A stretch of 64,000 nt of DNA from Escherichia phage vB_EcoM_G4507. The number at the start of each line of letters is the position of its first letter. Position 1 is the first letter of the stretch. The notes below the pieces were generated by a model that was not told the origin of the DNA, made no database searches, and saw only the letters and a program-made list of their open reading frames with translations. The DNA is taken from sequence record NC_054919.1, one strand, 5' to 3'. The position numbers were made by a program, and so were the translations under genes. This document shows, piece after piece, positions 234 through 30,824 of the stretch.

Positions 234-2213
234 ATGACTTTATTATCTCCGGGCATTGAGCTCAAAGAAACTACGGTTCAAAGCACCGTGGTTAATAACT
301 CTACTGGTACAGCAGCTTTGGCCGGTAAATTCCAGTGGGGTCCTGCTTTTCAGATTAAACAGGTTACAAATGAAGTAGATTTAGTTAATACTTTTGGTCA
401 ACCAACCGCTGAAACAGCTGACTACTTTATGTCTGCGATGAATTTCTTGCAGTACGGAAATGACTTACGAGTAGTTCGTGCTGTTGATAGAGATACCGCT
501 AAAAACTCATCGCCAATTGCTGGTAATATTGAATACACAATTTCTACCCCAGGTAGTAACTATGCAGTTGGAGATAAAATCACGGTCAAATATGTTTCAG
601 ATGATATTGAAACTGAAGGTAAAATTACTGAAGTAGACGCAGATGGAAAAATTAAGAAAATTAATATTCCTACTGCAAAAATTATTGCTAAAGCTAAAGA
701 AGTTGGCGAATACCCAGCATTAGGTTCTAACTGGACTGCAGAAATTTCTTCATCTTCTTCCGGTTTAGCTGCAGTAATAACTCTTGGAAAAATTATTACT
801 GATTCCGGTATTTTATTAGCTGAAATCGAGAGCGCTGAAACTGCTATGACAGCAGTTGATTTTCAGGCAAATCTTGAAAAATATGGAATTCCAGGAGTAG
901 TAGCTCTCTATCCAGGCGAATTAGGCGATAAAATTGAAATTGAAATCGTATCTAAAGCTGACTATGCGAAAGGCGCTTCTGCATTACTCCCAATTTATCC
1001 AGGTGGTGGTACTCGCGCATCTACTGCCAAAGCAGTGTTTGGATATGGACCACAAACTGATTCACAGTACGCCATTATAGTTCGTCGTAATGATGCTATT
1101 GTTCAAAGCGTTGTTCTTTCAACTAAGCGTGGTGAAAAAGATATTTACGATAGTAACATCTATATTGATGACTTTTTCGCAAAAGGTGGTTCAGAATATA
1201 TTTTCGCAACTGCGCAAAACTGGCCAGAAGGCTTCTCTGGAATTTTAACTCTGTCTGGTGGATTATCATCAAATGCTGAAGTAACAGCAGGAGATTTGAT
1301 GGAAGCTTGGGACTTCTTTGCTGACCGCGAATCTGTTGACGTTCAGTTGTTTATTGCGGGTTCTTGTGCCGGTGAATCTTTAGAAACAGCATCTACTGTC
1401 CAAAAACATGTTGTTTCAATTGGTGATGCTCGTCAAGATTGCTTAGTATTGTGCTCACCTCCGCGTGAAACTGTAGTTGGAATTCCTGTAACTCGTGCAG
1501 TAGATAATTTAGTTAACTGGAGAACTGCAGCAGGTTCATACACTGATAATAACTTTAATATCAGTTCAACCTATGCAGCAATTGATGGTAACTATAAGTA
1601 TCAGTATGACAAATATAATGATGTGAATCGTTGGGTTCCATTAGCAGCTGATATTGCTGGTTTATGCGCAAGAACTGATAACGTATCTCAGACTTGGATG
1701 TCTCCAGCTGGTTATAATCGTGGCCAAATTTTGAACGTTATTAAACTGGCTATTGAAACTCGCCAGGCTCAGCGCGACCGTTTATACCAAGAAGCTATCA
1801 ACCCGGTAACCGGTACAGGTGGTGATGGTTACGTATTGTATGGTGATAAAACAGCTACTTCTGTTCCTTCTCCATTTGATCGTATTAACGTTCGTCGTCT
1901 GTTTAATATGTTGAAAACGAATATCGGACGTAGTTCAAAATATCGTTTGTTCGAATTAAACAACGCGTTTACTCGTTCATCATTCCGCACAGAAACTGCC
2001 CAGTACTTGCAGGGAATTAAAGCTCTCGGTGGAATTTATGAATATCGTGTAGTTTGCGATACAACAAATAATACTCCGTCAGTAATTGATAGAAATGAGT
2101 TTGTTGCAACATTCTACATCCAACCGGCTCGTAGTATAAATTATATCCAACTTAATTTCGTCGCAACTGCTACTGGTGCAGATTTTGATGAGTTAACTGG
2201 TCTTGCAGGTTAA
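234..2213 (+). CDS. 18: tail sheath protein gp18
   Basis: 659-aa ORF MTLLSPGIELKETTVQ...; length and N-terminus match T4 gp18 as recalled; synteny 17-18-19. Confidence 0.95.
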   Translation: MTLLSPGIELKETTVQSTVVNNSTGTAALAGKFQWGPAFQIKQVTNEVDLVNTFGQPTAETADYFMSAMNFLQYGNDLRVVRAVDRDTAKNSSPIAGNIEYTISTPGSNYAVGDKITVKYVSDDIETEGKITEVDADGKIKKINIPTAKIIAKAKEVGEYPALGSNWTAEISSSSSGLAAVITLGKIITDSGILLAEIESAETAMTAVDFQANLEKYGIPGVVALYPGELGDKIEIEIVSKADYAKGASALLPIYPGGGTRASTAKAVFGYGPQTDSQYAIIVRRNDAIVQSVVLSTKRGEKDIYDSNIYIDDFFAKGGSEYIFATAQNWPEGFSGILTLSGGLSSNAEVTAGDLMEAWDFFADRESVDVQLFIAGSCAGESLETASTVQKHVVSIGDARQDCLVLCSPPRETVVGIPVTRAVDNLVNWRTAAGSYTDNNFNISSTYAAIDGNYKYQYDKYNDVNRWVPLAADIAGLCARTDNVSQTWMSPAGYNRGQILNVIKLAIETRQAQRDRLYQEAINPVTGTGGDGYVLYGDKTATSVPSPFDRINVRRLFNMLKTNIGRSSKYRLFELNNAFTRSSFRTETAQYLQGIKALGGIYEYRVVCDTTNNTPSVIDRNEFVATFYIQPARSINYIQLNFVATATGADFDELTGLAG

Positions 2214-2221
2214 TTGATTAT

Positions 2222-2235
2222 GGGGCTTCGGCCCC
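2222..2235 (+). terminator. GC-rich hairpin GGGGC-UUCG-GCCCC after gene 18
   Basis: Perfect 5-bp stem with UUCG tetraloop 9 nt after the gene 18 stop codon; lies inside the TTG-initiated ORF-track model 2214..2858. Confidence 0.5.
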
Positions 2236-2252
2236 TATTCTCGAGGAAACAA

Positions 2253-2858
2253 GTGATTATTTCTAAGTTTGTTACAATAAAACCAAGAAATCATTCAAAA
2301 ATGTGGTCGACAATTCTGGGATATAAAGTATCATATCATGATACAGTATCTGTTCCAATAGAATTAATGCCAAAGAATAGTAATAAAATAGTTGACGCTA
2401 AATGTGATTTGTGTGGTACTAAATTTAGTAGAAGCATTCAACTTTTAAATAGAACACCCACACATGCATGTAGAAAATGTAGCATTAAACAAGTTGCTAT
2501 TAAAAATTCGGAAGTTCAATCTGGAATAAGCAGACCATGGCAAAGAGGCGATAAACATCCTCGATGGACTGGTAAAAGAAAAGAGTTTGCATTATATGCT
2601 AGTAGAGTTCATTCTATAACTAAGTCAGCTAAAATAAGAAAAATTTGGTCAAAATGGCCGAATGCTGATAAAATAGGAGTGTGTGGAGTAGAAGGTGCTT
2701 ACCAACTCGATCATAAAGTATCTATCAAATATGGATTTGATAATTTAATTCCGCCGGAAATTATAGCAAGCGTAAAAAATTTAGAAATAATCACTTGGGA
2801 ATCTAACCGAGAAAAGTCAAAAAGAAATAGCGTAGATCTTTGGGATTTACTAGAATGA
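2253..2858 (+). CDS. free-standing HNH-family endonuclease (mob-like)
   Basis: C-terminal HNH-like motif GAYQLDHKVSIKYGFDNLIPPEIIASVKNLEIITWESNREKSKRN plus Cys pairs (CDLCG...CRKCS). Start set at GTG 2253 preceded by GAGGA; alternative ATG at 2301. Confidence 0.6.
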   Translation: MIISKFVTIKPRNHSKMWSTILGYKVSYHDTVSVPIELMPKNSNKIVDAKCDLCGTKFSRSIQLLNRTPTHACRKCSIKQVAIKNSEVQSGISRPWQRGDKHPRWTGKRKEFALYASRVHSITKSAKIRKIWSKWPNADKIGVCGVEGAYQLDHKVSIKYGFDNLIPPEIIASVKNLEIITWESNREKSKRNSVDLWDLLE

Positions 2859-2865
2859 TTCTAAA

Positions 2866-2883
2866 GGCCTGTTTCGACAGGCC
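2866..2883 (+). terminator. hairpin GGCCUGU-UUCG-ACAGGCC after the HNH gene
   Basis: 7-bp perfect stem with UUCG loop immediately 3' of the HNH ORF stop; followed by a TATAAATA at 2885-2892. Confidence 0.5.
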
Positions 2884-2943
2884 ATATAAATACACTATAT
2901 CCTTAATTCTTTAATTCTATATGCCCTAGGTTAAACATAGGGA

Positions 2944-2951
2944 TATAAATA
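2944..2951 (+). promoter_or_regulatory. late promoter TATAAATA for gene 19 (second copy at 2885-2892)
   Basis: TATAAATA 15 nt upstream of the gene 19 ATG, with GAGG Shine-Dalgarno between. Confidence 0.55.
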
Positions 2952-2965
2952 CTACAGAGGCTAAT

Positions 2966-3457
2966 ATGTTTGTAGATGATGTAACACGAGCGTTTGAATC
3001 TGGTGATTTTGCTCGACCTAACTTATTCCAAGTAGAAATTTCTTATCTTGGACAAAATTTTACATTCCAATGTAAAGCCACTGCTTTACCAGCTGGTATT
3101 GTAGAAAAAATTCCAGTCGGATTTATGAACCGTAAAATTAACGTAGCAGGCGATCGTACATTCGATGACTGGACTGTTACAGTAATGAACGATGAAGCTC
3201 ATGATGCTCGCCAGAAGTTTGTTGATTGGCAAAGCATTGCTGCTGGTCAAGGAAACGAAATTACTGGTGGAAAACCTGCAGAGTATAAAAAGAGCGCTAT
3301 TGTTCGTCAATATGCTCGTGATGCTAAAACAGTAACAAAAGAAATTGAAATTAAAGGTCTGTGGCCTACTAACGTGGGTGAACTTCAATTAGATTGGGAT
3401 TCAAACAATGAAATCCAAACCTTTGAAGTAACTCTTGCTCTCGATTATTGGGAATAA
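2966..3457 (+). CDS. 19: tail tube protein gp19
   Basis: 163-aa ORF MFVDDVTRAFESGDFARPNLFQVEISYLG...; length matches T4 gp19 as recalled; synteny. Confidence 0.95.
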   Translation: MFVDDVTRAFESGDFARPNLFQVEISYLGQNFTFQCKATALPAGIVEKIPVGFMNRKINVAGDRTFDDWTVTVMNDEAHDARQKFVDWQSIAAGQGNEITGGKPAEYKKSAIVRQYARDAKTVTKEIEIKGLWPTNVGELQLDWDSNNEIQTFEVTLALDYWE

Positions 3458-3463
3458 AATGAA

Positions 3464-3478
3464 TGGGGAGAAATCCCC
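3464..3478 (+). terminator. hairpin GGGGA-GAAAU-CCCC after gene 19
   Basis: 5-bp stem-loop directly after the gene 19 stop; late promoter TATAAATA follows at 3505-3512. Confidence 0.45.
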
Positions 3479-3489
3479 ATCCTGCTTAA

Positions 3490-5114
<1,625 letters not shown>

Positions 5115-23669: not shown

Positions 23670-24634
23670 TGTATTCTTTAGAGGAATTTAATAATCAAGC
23701 AATAAACGCAGATTTCCAACGTAATAATATGTTCAGCTGTGTTTTTGCTACAACTCCATCAACTAAAAGCTCTTCGTTGATAAGTTCAATTAGCAACTTT
23801 TCTTATAATAACTTGGGCCTAAATTCAGATTGGTTAGGATTAACTCAAGGCGATATTAATCAGGGAATTACTACGCTAATTACAGCTGGCACACAAAAAC
23901 TGATAAGAAAATCAGGGGTTAGTAAATATCTTATTGGTGCCATGAGTCAACGTACAGTTCAAAGTTTATTAGGCTCATTTACAGTTGGTACATATTTAAT
24001 TGACTTCTTTAACATGGCATATAACTCATCTGGATTGATGATATACTCTGTAAAAATGCCAGAGAATAGATTATCCTATGAAACTGACTGGAACTATAAT
24101 TCTCCTAATATTCGTATAACTGGGAGAGAATTAGACCCTTTGGTTATTTCATTCAGAATGGATTCAGAAGCTTGTAACTATCGTGCAATGCAAGACTGGG
24201 TTAACGCTGTTCAAGACCCAGTAACTGGATTGCGTGCTTTGCCGCAAGATGTCGAGGCTGATATTCAGGTTAATCTTCATTCTCGCAATGGATTACCACA
24301 TACTGCGGTGATGTTCACTGGATGCATTCCAGTGTCCGTAAGCGCTCCTGAGTTATCATATGATGGAGATAACCAAATAACTACATTTGATGTTACTTTT
24401 GCGTATAGAGTCATGCAGGCTGGAGCAGTTGATAGACAAGCTGCGCTTGAATGGCTTGAATCTGCTGCTATAAATGGTATTCAAAGCGTTCTCGGAAATA
24501 GTGGAGGTGTCACTGGACTATCTAATTCGCTTTCACGACTTAGTAGATTAGGGGGAACTGCAGGAAGCATTTCAAATATTAACACTATGACAGGAATTGT
24601 CAATTCGCAAAGTAAAATATTAGGAGCAATATAA
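23669..24634 (+). CDS. 54: baseplate tail-tube initiator gp54
   Basis: 321-aa ORF coupled to gene 48; synteny. Confidence 0.92.
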   Translation: MYSLEEFNNQAINADFQRNNMFSCVFATTPSTKSSSLISSISNFSYNNLGLNSDWLGLTQGDINQGITTLITAGTQKLIRKSGVSKYLIGAMSQRTVQSLLGSFTVGTYLIDFFNMAYNSSGLMIYSVKMPENRLSYETDWNYNSPNIRITGRELDPLVISFRMDSEACNYRAMQDWVNAVQDPVTGLRALPQDVEADIQVNLHSRNGLPHTAVMFTGCIPVSVSAPELSYDGDNQITTFDVTFAYRVMQAGAVDRQAALEWLESAAINGIQSVLGNSGGVTGLSNSLSRLSRLGGTAGSISNINTMTGIVNSQSKILGAI

Positions 24635-24636
24635 CA

Positions 24637-24658
24637 ATGGGGACCTTTCGGTCCCCAT
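24637..24658. terminator. bidirectional hairpin AUGGGGACC-UUUC-GGUCCCCAU between gene 54 and the convergent 96-aa ORF
   Basis: 9-bp perfect stem between two convergent stop codons. Confidence 0.6.
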
Positions 24659-24662
24659 ATTT

Positions 24663-24953
24663 TTATTTACGGAATGAAATGAAAGCAGCAACTGAAGCAA
24701 CTAAACTGTCTTCAATATAAACTTCAATTTTTACCGGAGCTTCTGACTCAAATTTACCTGTTACTACACCCTGAAAAATACTTTCAGTCTGTTCTGGCTT
24801 TGAAAAATTTTCAGAAGGAAAAATTCCGAACTTTTTATCTGTTCCAAAAATTTTGATAAATTCATCGTAAACTGCTTCATTAAAAGCATTATCAGCAGGA
24901 ATAACGCCTTCAACTACAAGTTCTTGACCTAAAAAGCGCAAAGAAGATTTCAT
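24663..24953 (-). CDS. hypothetical 96-aa protein driven by the duplicated early-promoter cassette
   Basis: ORF with GAGGA Shine-Dalgarno 9 nt upstream; GTTTAC-type promoter directly upstream; no recognisable domain. Confidence 0.6.
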   Translation of the reverse strand: MKSSLRFLGQELVVEGVIPADNAFNEAVYDEFIKIFGTDKKFGIFPSENFSKPEQTESIFQGVVTGKFESEAPVKIEVYIEDSLVASVAAFISFRK

Positions 24954-24960
24954 TTTGTGT

Positions 24961-25014
24961 TCCTCATGTTATGTCAGTAAGACTACTATAACACAACACG
25001 AGGGACTTGTAAAC
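24961..25014 (-). promoter_or_regulatory. 54-bp early-promoter plus leader cassette, copy 1
   Basis: Minus strand GTTTACAAGTCCCTCGTGTTGTGTTATAGTAGTCTTACTGACATAACATGAGGA: GTTTAC (-35), TATAGT/TTATAG (-10), GAGGA SD. Matches 40215-40268 at 53 of 54 positions. Confidence 0.6.
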
Positions 25015-27071
25015 TACATCTTGAACTTTTTAGACATTCCGTTGATGTTAACCAAAGAAGCTAAGATTTGAGAAACTTCGTTTTCCTCTTCTTTTGATTC
25101 TTCTACAAGGAATTGATTAAATCCAGCCATTGGACGAACTTCACCAGTTTCCATTAGATGGTCGCCATCATATACTGATTCTTCTAATTGTTCAGAAGGA
25201 GGAACGATTGTACCTTCGATTAGATACTTGTTATAAGCAGTTTCTTTCATAAAGTAAGTACTTACTTTATTAATCTTCAGTAAAATTCCACGTGGTAGAA
25301 TAACTTCAGCTTCTGACGGAAATCCTGATAAATGACCCGGAACGATAACTTTGATTCGCTCAGCTCCTTTAATTACCATACCCACGCTAGTTTCAGCATC
25401 TTCATTAGCATATGTAGAATGACTACCCATATGCATCAAATCTTCTGCATCAACGGAACCTTCTCCTTCACCAGAAAATACTGCGCCGGAATCATCTAGA
25501 GCCATATAGTTTTTACCATGCTCACCGAAGATATTTGGTTTAAGCGATGTGGATACGAAGTTCTTGAAATAGAACATTTTATTTTCAATGTTATGACGCA
25601 AAGTTTTAAAGGTAACTTCTTGTCCACGGTAAAGTGTAGTTCCTGGAGGAAGAACTGAACCTTTAGCGAATGCAGAATCAAGCGTCTCAATATGTTTAAT
25701 AGCTCGTTCCATATATTCTTCACGGGTAGAATCTGGTTTACCCAAAAGGAACGAGTTCATTTCAACATATGAATCTGCACAATAATCTTCAATTACATCA
25801 GATTCAGCTTGAGTTAATCCTTTTGGAGTTACTTCAGTGCTTGCGTATTCATATGCCTGAGCAGCAGATTCATTAATCAATTTATAAATGCCATTCATGA
25901 CAAATTGAATAATAGCTGTCTTTTCATCTGGCGTAGCTTTAGAACCTTTAACCAAATCATTGATAATTTTCTTAATAACATCAAAGCTATTAGAAATATT
26001 AATATCAGCAAGATCGCTTAAAATTTTATCAGTCTTATAATCAAAGAATTCTTTATTCTTTAAATATTCTTGAGAACCTTGATATGTTATATCGCTCTGT
26101 AACTTGATAGATGGATCACGTAAACGTGCATGGGCTAATGCAATATGATTTCGGAAGCTTTCGAGTTCATAATCACTAGATTTAAAACGAGAAGCGCTTC
26201 TCATACCGCCTATAGCTCCTTTGCTGAAGTTTGAACCAATTTGAATAACGCCAGAGTTCATTGGTCCTTCTGCTTTATACACCGGAACTTTAGATTCAAA
26301 CTCTTGATATTTCTTAGCAGCGAAGCTATCACCCTGAAGTGAAGCATCAACAGTAGAATATTGAGCTTGTGCTGCTAATCGACGACTAATTTTAGTTTTC
26401 TGAATAACAGCTTGGTCCGTGCGCTTATCATTTTCTAAAGCAATAGAAGCAGCAACAGCAACAGCTTTAGGAACAGCATTACCTGTTTTAACATCTACAT
26501 AAACATCACCAACCTTTGATTCAACTTTTGTGAATAACTCAGTTGAAATAGGAGGTACACCTGGAATGTCTTCTAAATTGGCATTTTTACGATAAACCAT
26601 AATATATGCGTACTTTTTATCATAATCCCAGATTTCCTTTAAAAGAACATATCGACCTGCTCCTTTAGTACGTACTAAACGGTCAGCAATAACTTGCATT
26701 TGACGAGCAGCGCCATTTGTTTTACTCTTTAGTACGCGGAATAAGCATGCATCAATTTTATACTGTTTCATTGTTTGAAGAGCAGTATCAAAAACAGCGT
26801 TAATGACGCCAATTGGATTTCCACCCAAGTTTCTAAGTTTAACCAGTGATAATTTCTCGTTGACACCTATCATTACGATATGCATCATTTTATCGCCCGG
26901 CTTAACGTTTTTATTTGTATCACCTCCAGAGGTGTATGTACAAAATCTAAATCCAGGAAGCACGCTTTCTTCGCCGGCTTGAATAGCAAAAATTTGAGGT
27001 ATTTTATGCTTAGGATTTAAGTTAACAACCGGCGCCGAAGCGCCGTCAAATAATTCTGTAATAAGTTCCAT
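25014..27071 (-). CDS. Alt-like ADP-ribosyltransferase paralog
   Basis: 685 aa; N-terminus MELITELFDGASAPVVNLNPKHKIPQIF and ART motifs TLYRGQ, FYFKNFVSTSL, SEAEVILPRG align with the adjacent alt gene; ATG 3 nt after the alt stop. Confidence 0.85.
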   Translation of the reverse strand: MELITELFDGASAPVVNLNPKHKIPQIFAIQAGEESVLPGFRFCTYTSGGDTNKNVKPGDKMMHIVMIGVNEKLSLVKLRNLGGNPIGVINAVFDTALQTMKQYKIDACLFRVLKSKTNGAARQMQVIADRLVRTKGAGRYVLLKEIWDYDKKYAYIMVYRKNANLEDIPGVPPISTELFTKVESKVGDVYVDVKTGNAVPKAVAVAASIALENDKRTDQAVIQKTKISRRLAAQAQYSTVDASLQGDSFAAKKYQEFESKVPVYKAEGPMNSGVIQIGSNFSKGAIGGMRSASRFKSSDYELESFRNHIALAHARLRDPSIKLQSDITYQGSQEYLKNKEFFDYKTDKILSDLADINISNSFDVIKKIINDLVKGSKATPDEKTAIIQFVMNGIYKLINESAAQAYEYASTEVTPKGLTQAESDVIEDYCADSYVEMNSFLLGKPDSTREEYMERAIKHIETLDSAFAKGSVLPPGTTLYRGQEVTFKTLRHNIENKMFYFKNFVSTSLKPNIFGEHGKNYMALDDSGAVFSGEGEGSVDAEDLMHMGSHSTYANEDAETSVGMVIKGAERIKVIVPGHLSGFPSEAEVILPRGILLKINKVSTYFMKETAYNKYLIEGTIVPPSEQLEESVYDGDHLMETGEVRPMAGFNQFLVEESKEEENEVSQILASLVNINGMSKKFKM

Positions 27072-27074
27072 GAT

Positions 27075-29126
27075 TTATCCTTGAACGAACTTGTAAGGCA
27101 TGTTTGTAATATCTATGCAAGACGCAATAATTCCAAGAGATGATTCTACTTTCTGTTTAACATTTGATGAAACAAATGATGCAAAGTCAACTCTATCTTC
27201 TATATCACCTGTCATTGTAACTACTTCGCCGGTTTCCATTAAACGGTCACCGTCATAAATTACTGATTCGGTGAGTTCTTCGGTGGTCATAACTTCAGCT
27301 TGAATAAGCTTGTTGTTAGTTTTGACTGTTCCATCATTGTAAGATGCATCAGTTATTTTATTAACTTTGACCATTAATCCACGTGGCAAAATGACTTCCA
27401 TTTCATTTGAAGGCGCTAAACTTCCACCGGGTAAAACAACATTGACTTTATCAGCCCCAGTAATAACCCATCCAATTCCGACTAAATTATCGCTAGAATT
27501 AACAAGCCCTTCATCATTTTTATCGATAGAAATGTTTAGACGCTTTTCATCTGGTAAAACACCAACAGCTGAATCAGTCATCCAAGTACCAAAAATGTTT
27601 GGATATAATGATGTTGATACAAAATTTCTAAAATAAAAAACTCGATTTTTTACCATTGCTTCGTATATTGAAGGTAACATTCGTTGTGAACGATACAAAG
27701 TAATACCTTTTGGTAATCGTTCACCATTTTTAAAGGCTGAATCTAAATTATCAATAGCTTTTTCTATGTCAGATGCTGTCAAAATACTTGTACGCTCATC
27801 TGGATTATATAATCCCAAAAGAGCATTATTTATGTCTACATATCCTGAACCTACGTATTCACGAATTCCGCGTTTTTGTGCTGGTGTGTATTTAGATGAA
27901 TCTTTATTTTCGACTATAGGATGTAATGACCATCCAGCTGTAAGAGCATATCCACGTAATTCTCTTCGAATAATCTTTGTTTTTATTGCATTCCAAGAAT
28001 TTTGTACTAACTCATTTGCAGCATCTTGGTTTAAATGCGAATGTTTGTTAATATTTCTTTCAAACCAAGCACCTTTATATTTTTCTAAAGTATTATCGAC
28101 GATAGAAGCAATAGTTTCTAAAGTTTTTATTGAAGTAATAGATTCTTTTCGTAATTTTTCTAAAGCTTTATTTTTTATTTCTGCATTAATAATGGATTCT
28201 TTATCTTCAGGAATTATAGAAGCTTCTCTGAATGCCATCCCAGCTGTAACACTGCTAAGAGCATTCTCTAGTGCAAATCCTGAAGTAGAAATTACCGTTA
28301 ATTCATTAGAATCAGAAATTAAAGGCGCATCAGCGGGTTTATTTAATTCTGCTGCTGAAGCCTCAAATTTTTGAAACATCGGTGTTTCAAATCTAGAAGA
28401 TTCCAATGACTGACTTTGTGCAATTGCTCTACGGGAAATTTTAACTTTAACGATTACAGCTTGGTCAGAACGTTTATCATTTTCTTGTGCAATAGATGCT
28501 GCAATTGCCTCATTTTTGGTTACTTGAGCTCCGGTATCTTTATTGATATAAACATCACCGACCTTCGATTCAACTTTAGTAAAGAGCTCGGTACTAATTT
28601 CCGGAACTCCTGGAATGTCTTCTAGTGATACATTTTTGCGATGTATAAGAATATATGCATACTTTTTATCATAATCCCAGAGTTCCTTAAGAAGGACGTA
28701 TCTGCCACCTGAACGACTACGGATAAGTCTATCAGCAATAACTTGAATTTGTCGAGCTTGACCAGCGGTTTTAGACTTAAGAATACGAAGCATACAGGCA
28801 TCAATTTTATACTGACGCATTGTTTGCATCGCAACAGTAAAAACTGAATTGATATAATTAATTGGGCTTGGACCAAGACCTTTTAATTTAGCAATTGAAC
28901 CTTTAGCAGTTAATGTAAAAGGAACAATATGCATCATTTTATCGCCCATCTTTAAATCGCGATTAGTATCACCTCCAGATGTATAGGTACATAAACGAAA
29001 GCCTGGTTGTTCAATTGCATCATCAACATGAACTGAAAAAATTTGCGGTATTTTCTTCTTTGGATTTAAGTTTGTAATCGGAAGAGTAGTATCTTCGTCA
29101 AATAATTCTGTAATAAGTTCCATCAT
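27075..29126 (-). CDS. alt: Alt ADP-ribosyltransferase (capsid-packaged, injected)
   Basis: 683 aa; MMELITELFDEDTTLPITNLNPKKKIPQIF...; R-S-ExE motifs ITLYRSQ, FYFRNFVSTSL, NEMEVILPRG; late promoter upstream. Confidence 0.9.
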   Translation of the reverse strand: MMELITELFDEDTTLPITNLNPKKKIPQIFSVHVDDAIEQPGFRLCTYTSGGDTNRDLKMGDKMMHIVPFTLTAKGSIAKLKGLGPSPINYINSVFTVAMQTMRQYKIDACMLRILKSKTAGQARQIQVIADRLIRSRSGGRYVLLKELWDYDKKYAYILIHRKNVSLEDIPGVPEISTELFTKVESKVGDVYINKDTGAQVTKNEAIAASIAQENDKRSDQAVIVKVKISRRAIAQSQSLESSRFETPMFQKFEASAAELNKPADAPLISDSNELTVISTSGFALENALSSVTAGMAFREASIIPEDKESIINAEIKNKALEKLRKESITSIKTLETIASIVDNTLEKYKGAWFERNINKHSHLNQDAANELVQNSWNAIKTKIIRRELRGYALTAGWSLHPIVENKDSSKYTPAQKRGIREYVGSGYVDINNALLGLYNPDERTSILTASDIEKAIDNLDSAFKNGERLPKGITLYRSQRMLPSIYEAMVKNRVFYFRNFVSTSLYPNIFGTWMTDSAVGVLPDEKRLNISIDKNDEGLVNSSDNLVGIGWVITGADKVNVVLPGGSLAPSNEMEVILPRGLMVKVNKITDASYNDGTVKTNNKLIQAEVMTTEELTESVIYDGDRLMETGEVVTMTGDIEDRVDFASFVSSNVKQKVESSLGIIASCIDITNMPYKFVQG

Positions 29127-29146
29127 AGCCTCTCTAGTGTTTATTC

Positions 29147-29154
29147 TATTTATA
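29147..29154 (-). promoter_or_regulatory. late promoter TATAAATA for alt
   Basis: Minus-strand TATAAATA about 21 nt upstream of the alt ATG. Confidence 0.5.
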
Positions 29155-29159
29155 AAATT

Positions 29160-29177
29160 AAAGGCCCGAAGGCCTTT
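29160..29177 (-). terminator. hairpin AAAGGCC-UUCG-GGCCUUU upstream of alt
   Basis: 7-bp stem with UUCG loop at the stop of the 62-aa ORF; separates the early block from late alt transcription. Confidence 0.55.
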
Positions 29178-29364
29178 AATAATCTAGTGGTAAGAGAGTA
29201 CGGTATATTTCAAACTTTGGACCTTTTTCATAGGCATCAAATGTTTCTGTGAATTTATTATAAGCATATGCATCTACAAATTCGAGAATGACTTGTGATA
29301 CAGAAGTAGAAACATCTCCACCTTCTTTTTGAGCAATGACAATTGTTTCTAAGTAAGCTTTCAT
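29176..29364 (-). CDS. hypothetical 62-aa protein
   Basis: ORF coupled to the ligase stop (overlap 29361-29364); no recognisable domain. Confidence 0.5.
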   Translation of the reverse strand: MKAYLETIVIAQKEGGDVSTSVSQVILEFVDAYAYNKFTETFDAYEKGPKFEIYRTLLPLDY

Positions 29365-30824
29365 AAACCAGTTACCTCATGAAAATCACCAAATACATCC
29401 TCGAATGTATTAGCTTTAGTTTTATCTTCACGCAAACGAATCGCAATCGGAAGAAATAATTTAACGTAATCAGTGCGGCCATCAGATTTTAACCAACCGT
29501 TGCATTCGCACTCTAGAATTTTTCCAATATAATAATTTTGGTTTTCCATAATGCGAGTACGGTCAAGTTCATGCGATTTTACACCGGCTTTATCTTTTAA
29601 GCCTGAACCAGCATTTACTTTAATTTTTCCACACTCTGACTCAAGAATAAATCCACCTGCTTTAGTAGGGTCTTTACGGTGAGGATAAATTCCTACAATT
29701 TTTAAATCAACATCAATTACTTCTTTAAATTTATAGAGATTTTTTGAACGAGCATTTTCCCATAATCCATCGATATTTTTGAGAATAATACCTTCAAGAC
29801 CTTGGTCAATATACTTTTTATAAATTATCTTGGCTTCGTCTAGGTTATTTACTACCTGGTTTTCAATTAAAATTACTTTATCATAGCCTGATGTCATTTG
29901 TTCTAGTTTAGAAAAACGTACATCATATTTCAAACGAAATGCAGGAAGACCGTATATTTCTACCAACGGTACATAATCCCAGACCTGAAACTTCATGCAT
30001 TGTGCTTCTTTTTCAGAAATGGTTCCCTTTAAAGATTTATTGGCGATGCCATTAGATGCAGTACGTGATTCAGCTACTTCGGCGAATTCTTTAGCTTTAC
30101 TGTTTTCAGGATAAGCATCAAAAAGAAAATCTAGGCCTTCTGGCTCCTTTTTAACTTGCTCATGATATACCAATTCGCCATCAATTAACACGCCTTCTGG
30201 ATGAATCTGGCGGGCTTCAGCGGTCATTTTGATTAATTCTTCCTTAAGAAGATCTAATCCTAGATATTCATTACCAGCTCGTGATAAAAGACGAACGTCA
30301 TCTAATTCATCACCTCTGACTTCGGCAAAGCACCGAGCTCCATCAGCTTTTAACTGGGCAAAGGCTGGAAATTTGATATTCTTATTAATGCCTTTTTCAT
30401 CATAAGAACTTGCAAGCATTTGAGGTTGTTCAGGAATTAAACCTGGCCAAACTTTGTTCGCAATAGATACTGAAGCGCCACATTCAAGGTCTCGCATCAT
30501 CACTCGACGCAAAACTTCAACATCATCTTTTTTACCGTCAGTAATATAACCTACTAATTCCTCAATTGCCGCATTTCCGGTCAATTTTCGAGTAGCTAAT
30601 GTAAATTCAATGAAGTCAAGCATATCAGTAATAGTCAGCATTCCAAAACTCTGGGTAGCAATACCAGGTTTAGGCCATTTCTTGATATAATACTGTAACC
30701 CACGAGAATAAGTCAGACGATATACTCGTTTAAGCAATTCATTATCTTTATTCTTTTCAAGAATTGCTTGCTTCTGCTTAGTTGAACCAATAGATGCTAT
30801 TTCGTTCAGAATTTTAAGAATCAT
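29361..30824 (-). CDS. 30: ATP-dependent DNA ligase gp30
   Basis: 487-aa ORF with adenylation motif I FAQLKADGARC; N-terminus MILKILNEIASIGSTKQKQAILEKNKDNELLKRVYRLTY as in T4 ligase. Confidence 0.95.
   Translation of the reverse strand: MILKILNEIASIGSTKQKQAILEKNKDNELLKRVYRLTYSRGLQYYIKKWPKPGIATQSFGMLTITDMLDFIEFTLATRKLTGNAAIEELVGYITDGKKDDVEVLRRVMMRDLECGASVSIANKVWPGLIPEQPQMLASSYDEKGINKNIKFPAFAQLKADGARCFAEVRGDELDDVRLLSRAGNEYLGLDLLKEELIKMTAEARQIHPEGVLIDGELVYHEQVKKEPEGLDFLFDAYPENSKAKEFAEVAESRTASNGIANKSLKGTISEKEAQCMKFQVWDYVPLVEIYGLPAFRLKYDVRFSKLEQMTSGYDKVILIENQVVNNLDEAKIIYKKYIDQGLEGIILKNIDGLWENARSKNLYKFKEVIDVDLKIVGIYPHRKDPTKAGGFILESECGKIKVNAGSGLKDKAGVKSHELDRTRIMENQNYYIGKILECECNGWLKSDGRTDYVKLFLPIAIRLREDKTKANTFEDVFGDFHEVTGL

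Follow-up and report, generated by a model that had tools for sequence, protein, structure and literature searches.

Nearly all knowledge on ADP-ribosyltransferases (ARTs) that are injected by phages comes from T4. T4 Alt (NP_049811) sits inside the phage head in ~40 copies and is injected together with the DNA (PMC9026906; PMC2988021). It ADP-ribosylates Arg265 of the RNA polymerase alpha subunit and other host proteins (PMC2988021), and it is non-essential (PMC9026906). The phage protease gp21 cuts T4 Alt at ITE-6 and LTE-619, as found by mass spectrometry, which gives a mature protein of 68.2 kDa (PMC5694885). T4 further encodes ModA and ModB, which share the R-S-E ART clade with Alt and VIP2 (PMC5512222) and target host transcription and translation proteins (PMC2988021). 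Unlike the Alt proteins, these two are small, are expressed early and stay out of the capsid. The T4 genes alt.-1 and alt.-2 are known as a paralogous alt duplication, and a full-length alt duplicate in tandem with alt has been described for Aeromonas phage 44RR (Nolan et al. 2006, PMC1524935). In the window, by which we mean the whole stretch of 64,000 nucleotides of Escherichia phage vB_EcoM_G4507 (NC_054919.1) analysed here, two full-length Alt-type ART genes lie head to tail, both on the minus strand. Copy A (27075..29123, 682 aa) is the orthologue of T4 alt. Copy B (25014..27071, 685 aa) is a second Alt-type ART and the intact form of T4 alt.-1/alt.-2. We consider it likely that this intact two-gene Tequatrovirus alt locus encodes two late, packaged, gp21-trimmed and injected mono-ARTs that share a packaging module and differ in their effector bodies. 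Compared with this locus, T4 is the reduced case.

The 4.8 kb surrounding the alt pair is 99.8% identical to Escherichia phages vB_EcoM_G4498, G4500 and G29, and the phage of the window belongs to the genus Tequatrovirus. The gene order is that of the T4 map, with 29, 48 and 54 on the plus strand and alt.-3, copy B, copy A, alt.1 and the DNA ligase gene 30 on the minus strand. The pair thus has the genomic context of the Alt family, between gene 30/alt.1 and alt.-3/gene 54 with a late promoter in front. Copy A shares with T4 Alt its length, these neighbours (30, alt.1, alt.-3, 54), late promoter and terminator, at 98.4% protein identity. The original prediction of two tandem full-length Alt-type ARTs holds. 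Both proteins score far above the gathering cut-off of PF03496 (23.4 bits), copy A with 125 bits and copy B with 71.9 bits, and both match PHROG 802, ‘Alt-like RNA polymerase ADP-ribosyltransferase’, from end to end (residues 1-681 of A, E = 8e-262; residues 1-685 of B, E = 2e-256). PF26846 (Tevenvirinae_ADPRT) and PF03496 are precomputed for the 99%-identical protein cluster P0001 and its relatives, and no NCBIfam model matches copy A or copy B. No further Alt-like ART besides these two is detectable in the window. The predicted limits of copy B (25014-27071) stand, and those of copy A need a small correction. Its reading frame was first listed as 27075-29126 with 683 aa and opens with ATGATG. 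The Shine-Dalgarno sequence GAGAGG (29129..29134, minus strand) leaves a spacing of 2 nt to the first ATG and of 5 nt to the second, at 29123, and the second ATG is the start in the T4 annotation and in the published cleavage numbering that gives ITE-6 (PMC5694885). Because spacing, annotation and cleavage numbering all favour the second ATG, copy A likely spans 27075-29123 and encodes 682 aa.

Alignment of copy A with copy B over their full length gives 42% identity (E = 2e-157), which is distributed very unevenly. The identity is 55-75% in residues 1-238, 8-25% in residues ~239-424, 25-45% in the ART domain and 30-42% in the tail. Averaged by region, this corresponds to 68% for the N-terminal module, ~24% for the effector body and 37% for the ART domain. 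The catalytic motifs are complete in both copies, with LYR 476-478, STS 503-505 and EME 574-576 in copy A (R478, S503/S505, E574/E576) and LYR 480-482, STS 507-509 and EAE 587-589 in copy B (R482, S507/S509, E587/E589). In an alignment of 10 distinct Alt types, the catalytic arginine, both serines of S-T-S and both glutamates of E-x-E are invariant. The region-wise comparison confirms what had been proposed for the pair from the translations, a shared N-terminus and shared LYR, STS and ExE motifs with a divergent central third. On the minus strand, the N-terminal alpha/beta module of copy A occupies 28410..29123 (residues 1-238, including the 6-residue propeptide MELITE). Its effector body follows at 27267..28409, consisting of a helical region (~239-465) and the R-S-E ART domain (~466-619), and its C-terminal propeptide at 27078..27266 (residues 620-682), the T4 equivalent of which is removed by gp21 (PMC5694885). 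In copy B, the N-terminal module with ITE-6 lies at 26358..27071 (residues 1-238), the effector body at 25179..26357 (helical region ~239-468, R-S-E ART domain ~469-631) and the predicted C-terminal propeptide at 25017..25178 (residues 632-685, following LEE-631, which aligns with Alt LTE-619).

Structure prediction, which had been suggested as a check of the pair, was run with AlphaFold2 on a shallow alignment of 10 sequences. The mean predicted local distance difference test score (pLDDT) reaches 73.8 in the model of copy B and 70.2 in that of copy A. The two models share one predicted architecture of an alpha/beta N-terminal domain (~12-222), an all-helical region (~230-468), the ART fold and a C-terminal tail of low confidence; the predicted propeptide of copy B falls in this low-pLDDT tail. 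The central third, in which the sequences diverge most, is predicted as a nearly identical series of helices in both proteins. A domain swap to unrelated sequence was considered as the cause of the divergent centre and rejected, given these near-identical predicted helices. Since the helix series are nearly alike in both models, the divergent centre looks like fast evolution within one homologous fold. A search of the Protein Data Bank with both protein sequences matched the ART domain only, and this domain is similar to solved R-S-E toxins in both copies. A profile search with the alignment of the 10 types against a collection of 5.8 billion proteins yielded the 258 proteins already obtained in the single-sequence search, so that no diversity was added.

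The gp21 motifs are present at both ends of both copies, with ITE-6 at the N-terminus and an L-x-E site ~55-63 residues from the C-terminus. Copy A contains ITE-6 and LTE-619, and the mass calculated for its mature form (residues 7-619) is 68.2 kDa, which equals the published mass. Copy B contains ITE-6 and, at the aligned C-terminal site, LEE-631, so that the predicted mature form (residues 7-631) has 69.1 kDa. E6 and the glutamate of the C-terminal L-x-E site (E631 in copy B) are invariant across the 10 Alt types. Also invariant across the Alt types are the YDGD..ETGE motif and the terminal K-F in the C-terminal propeptide. These conserved motifs are good indirect evidence that makes Alt-like packaging and processing of copy B plausible. 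In the route that we propose, one late transcript from the TATAAATA promoter at 29147-29154 would give two paralogous proteins of ~76 kDa. Each would consist of the N-terminal module (~238 aa), a fast-evolving helical region, a C3/VIP2-like R-S-E mono-ART and a C-terminal propeptide of 54-63 aa. The N-terminal alpha/beta module with its 6-residue propeptide would serve incorporation into the prohead core. Copy B would most likely follow the route of Alt: it would be made late, packaged, trimmed by gp21 at ITE-6 and LEE-631 and injected. It would most likely also be an active arginine ART whose substrates differ in part from those of Alt. For copy B we infer all of these steps, that is packaging, processing, injection, enzymatic activity and distinct targets.

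In C3-like and iota-like toxins, the ADP-ribosylating turn-turn (ARTT) loop that precedes the (Q/E)-x-E motif has an aromatic residue for substrate recognition. The B-type proteins also carry an aromatic residue in this loop (LSGFPSEAE, compared with the C3-type LTAYPGQYE in 4xsg), whereas all A-type proteins are without it (SLAPSNEME, LSPQSQEME). The types also differ near the catalytic arginine and in E-x-E. A types have LYRSQ or LWRAQ and E-M-E, B types have LYRGQ and E-A-E. T4 Alt and copy B are thus alike in domain architecture, catalytic residues and both gp21 motifs, but they share only 42% identity overall and ~24% in the body, and copy B has the C3-like aromatic ARTT loop and E-A-E in place of E-M-E. 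In contrast to C3, Vis, CPILE-a/iota, VIP2 and Certhrax, the Alt proteins add the Tevenvirinae N-terminal module, the helical region and propeptides that the phage protease removes. Their vehicle is the phage capsid, whereas C3-like and binary toxins use secretion or a binding component. The differences in ARTT loop and motifs support different specificities of A and B. Taken together, the gp21 motifs and the ARTT loop make it reasonable to regard copy B as a putative second injected enzyme with different targets.

The two parts of the Alt proteins appear to have different histories. Across Tequatrovirus and Dhakavirus, the effector body (residues 239-631) and the tail group by type, while the N-terminal module groups by genome (quartet bootstrap 500/500 each). 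The two paralogues of one genome are 64-68% identical in the N-terminus and 23-28% in the body; orthologues from the two genera are 46-47% identical in the N-terminus and 42-51% in the body. These groupings indicate that the duplication is older than the split of Tequatrovirus and Dhakavirus. They are the signature of concerted evolution of the N-terminus, or of body cassettes moving between lineages. Recombination or gene conversion would keep the N-terminal modules alike while the effector bodies diverge. Direct traces of such exchange are found in P0003-P0006, which are chimeras of an A N-terminus and a B body whose four crossover points differ and all fall within ~240 residues of the N-terminus. 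The N-terminal module of copy B is thus the zone of all observed A::B crossovers and, judged from these sequences, a recombination hotspot. Short-read assembly artefacts were considered as a source of the chimeras and rejected; A and B share no exact 31-mer, and the same state occurs in complete genomes. In the complete genomes of ECML-134, SCS4 and Yersinia phage PST, the interval from alt.1 to alt.-3 contains such a chimera as its single Alt gene. The chimera loci are L008 (ECML-134) 2501-4561, L009 (Yersinia phage PST) 2501-4561, L006 4001-6055 and L005 4001-6061. From the chimeras in complete genomes we conclude that the N-terminal modules are interchangeable and that the B body is able to serve as sole Alt.

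A second kind of exchange affects the A slot. T2 and RB68 carry there another effector allele, an Alt of 697 aa (L004 (T2) 1904-3997; L010 (RB68) 404-2497; compared with window 27075-29123). This Alt is 100% identical to copy A of the window in the N-terminus and 98% in the tail, with 35% in the centre and 65% in the ART domain. The alleles of the A slot suggest that effector bodies are replaced like cassettes. Tequatrovirus may have at least three circulating body types, T4-A, T2-A and B.

T4 alt.-1 and alt.-2 (NP_049810, NP_049809) are the same gene as copy B in the same position and with the same junction, and the window gene is intact. They match copy B residues 1-56 (95%) and 55-116 (97%), respectively. 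The segment absent in T4 corresponds to 25034..26732 of the window (minus strand), ~1.7 kb that encode copy B residues ~114-680, and is bounded by the microhomology CT(C/T)TTTAG. The short direct repeats at its ends are CTTTTTAG and CTCTTTAG (window 25026-25033 and 26725-26732; L001 (T4) 4066-4451). A frameshift near codon 55 splits the T4 remnant into alt.-1 and alt.-2. The RefSeq record of T4 describes both as an old duplication of the first part of alt. The comparison identifies them as the decayed remnant of copy B, produced by the ~1.7 kb deletion and the frameshift.

The intact pair is the usual state of Tequatrovirus and T4 is the exception. Among about 500 Tequatrovirus-type records, ~395 (~80%) have an intact copy B. 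The T4 deletion junction is found in 91 records, and a few records show a third state with a single A::B chimera. Tandem pairs of two genes with a 3-nt gap occur in T2, RB68, G4498 and Dhakavirus MN04. T2 has alt (697 aa) and a gene of 685 aa annotated ‘alt.-1’ (AYD82792/AYD82791). RB68 has the same layout with a second gene annotated ‘alt.-2’, and copy B of T2 and RB68 is 98-99% identical to that of the window. The pair of Dhakavirus MN04 encodes 695 and 707 aa. In RefSeq (G4498), both genes are labelled ‘Alt-like RNA polymerase ADP-ribosyltransferase’. The tandem pair is already a known genomic feature, since it is annotated in hundreds of public records and was discussed by Nolan et al. (2006). 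What remains of interest is that T4 is without an apparently functional enzyme that is common to most of its relatives, and we found no experimental work on this enzyme in the literature.

Copy B could lack enzymatic function, either as a decoy without catalysis, as an internal head protein with a structural role only, or as a pseudogene in decay. Its PF03496 score below that of copy A (72 vs 125 bits) and the pseudogene remnant in T4 would fit such a loss of function. However, R482, S507, S509, E587 and E589 are intact and invariant, and the 685-aa reading frame is intact in the ~395 phage records with full-length copy B at at least 95% identity. In addition, the ratio of nonsynonymous to synonymous substitution rates (dN/dS) of copy B against the T2 and RB68 orthologues is 0.021 and 0.034, at dS 0.15-0.20. 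It stays low in N-terminal module, divergent centre, ART domain and C-terminal tail, so that all four regions of copy B are under strong purifying selection. The original prediction had named one copy lacking catalytic residues as the observation that would speak against it; the residues are invariant in both copies. Given invariant catalytic residues, low dN/dS and ~395 intact records, an inactive decoy or a decaying copy is ruled out, and we strongly disfavour this explanation to the point of finding it scarcely credible. Alternatively, copy B could be an active ART that stays in the producing cell and acts late after its synthesis, in the manner of ModA and ModB, which are T4-type ARTs that act without being packaged (PMC2988021). 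In line with such a protein, we found no proteomic evidence of copy B in virions in the literature, but copy B retains the whole N-terminal module, ITE-6, the L-x-E site and the motifs of the C-terminal propeptide. In Alt these elements are tied to prohead incorporation and gp21 processing, and in copy B all of them are under purifying selection. Copy B also shares its late-promoter transcript with a packaged protein, and an A N-terminus on a B body is the sole Alt of viable chimera phages. We regard an unpackaged copy B as very improbable.

A packaged and active copy B might still be a redundant second dose of Alt with essentially the same substrates, kept for dosage or robustness. In favour of this, the two copies agree in architecture and catalytic residues, T4 Alt is dispensable (PMC9026906), and either body is lost in nature, copy B in the 91 T4-type records and the A body in the chimeras. 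In contrast, the bodies are only ~24% identical (37% in the ART domain), they have been distinct since before the Tequatrovirus/Dhakavirus split with each under purifying selection, and each type has its own residues in the substrate-recognition ARTT loop and next to the catalytic arginine. If only dosage mattered, the bodies should have been homogenised in the way the N-terminus is. Redundancy of this kind therefore seems unlikely to us. In a more far-reaching reading, which we hold to be somewhat less likely than not, copy B is a second capsid-delivered effector with its own substrates, maybe directed against a host defence or toxin-antitoxin system and not against RNA polymerase. The N-terminal module and the propeptides would then form a generic ‘pack-and-inject’ adaptor, and recombination would exchange the bodies attached to it. 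Several points weigh against the explanation that we consider likely, two packaged and injected mono-ARTs with different bodies. The argument for different targets is built on divergence and one loop motif, and the AlphaFold2 models, with their shallow 10-sequence alignment, are of moderate confidence (pLDDT 70-74). In the literature we found neither a virion proteome of a two-copy phage nor a biochemical or functional study of copy B, and no direct evidence of copy B translation, packaging, cleavage, injection or activity. Finally, copy B is lost in T4-type phages and the copy A body in chimeras; as each effector body is lost in some phages, neither copy is essential and some redundancy is possible.

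If copy B is a second effector, laboratory T4 is without an injected enzyme that ~80% of its natural relatives carry, and recombination in the adaptor module shuffles, collapses and replaces effector bodies. A packaged copy B with different host targets would be an uncharacterised factor of first-minute host takeover or of counter-defence. T4 and T2-like phages could also differ in phenotype in part because of it. The modular layout of a shared N-terminal adaptor and an exchangeable body is relevant to the engineering of cargo delivery by T4-type capsids.

The expression signals of the pair are compact and conserved. On the minus strand, the GC-rich terminator hairpin AAAGGCC-TTCG-GGCCTTT (29160..29177) overlaps the stop codon of alt.1 and is annotated as terminator in the 99.8% identical record NC_054918. 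It shields the alt pair from early transcription coming from upstream. Directly past the hairpin lies the T4-type late promoter TATAAATA (29147..29154, minus strand), the only one upstream of the pair. The single late promoter that had been proposed for the pair is borne out, with one minus-strand match to TATAAATA within 24600-29400 that is conserved in relatives; in Dhakavirus MN04 the late promoter reads CATAAATA. At the A/B junction, CAAGGA-TAA-ATC-ATG, the TAA of copy A (27075-27077) is followed by a 3-nt gap (27072-27074) and the ATG of copy B at 27071. The Shine-Dalgarno sequence AAGGA of copy B (27078..27082, minus strand) lies within the last Gln-Gly codons of copy A. Both the 3-nt gap and the AAGGA inside the end of copy A had been noted in the original prediction, and they are conserved in T2, RB68, the uncultured relative L007 and MN04. 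Hairpin, late promoter, ribosome-binding site of copy A and the junction CAAGGrTAAnnnATG are kept in T4, T2, RB68, L007 and Dhakavirus MN04, and chance is an unrealistic explanation for the observed arrangement. The junction geometry fits coupled or re-initiating translation. Structure in the junction mRNA that hides the ribosome-binding site of copy B, as a sign of obligate coupling, is not significant (z = +0.58). The translational coupling proposed in the original prediction is plausible from the geometry.

The small genes on either side of the pair also match known families. Upstream, alt.1 (29176-29364, minus strand, 62 aa) matches Pfam PF24647, ‘Phage blade protein’, with E = 1.9e-29. 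Downstream of copy B, the alt.-3 homologue (24663-24953, minus strand, 96 aa) matches DUF5498 with E = 1.4e-64. In T4, mutants with a C-terminal extension of Alt.-3 escape from the CmdTAC defence system (PMC11618068). Between the copy B stop and the alt.-3 start, a match to an early-type sigma-70 promoter, TTTACA-17-TATAGT with an upstream TG, is found at 24985-25013 (minus strand) and would be alt.-3's own. A 9-bp GC-rich hairpin at 24637-24658, present on both strands, separates the converging genes 54 and alt.-3. A T run follows the stem on the plus strand, and the tail on the minus strand is weaker. The near-identical record NC_054918 annotates this hairpin as a terminator, and the late alt transcript probably ends here.

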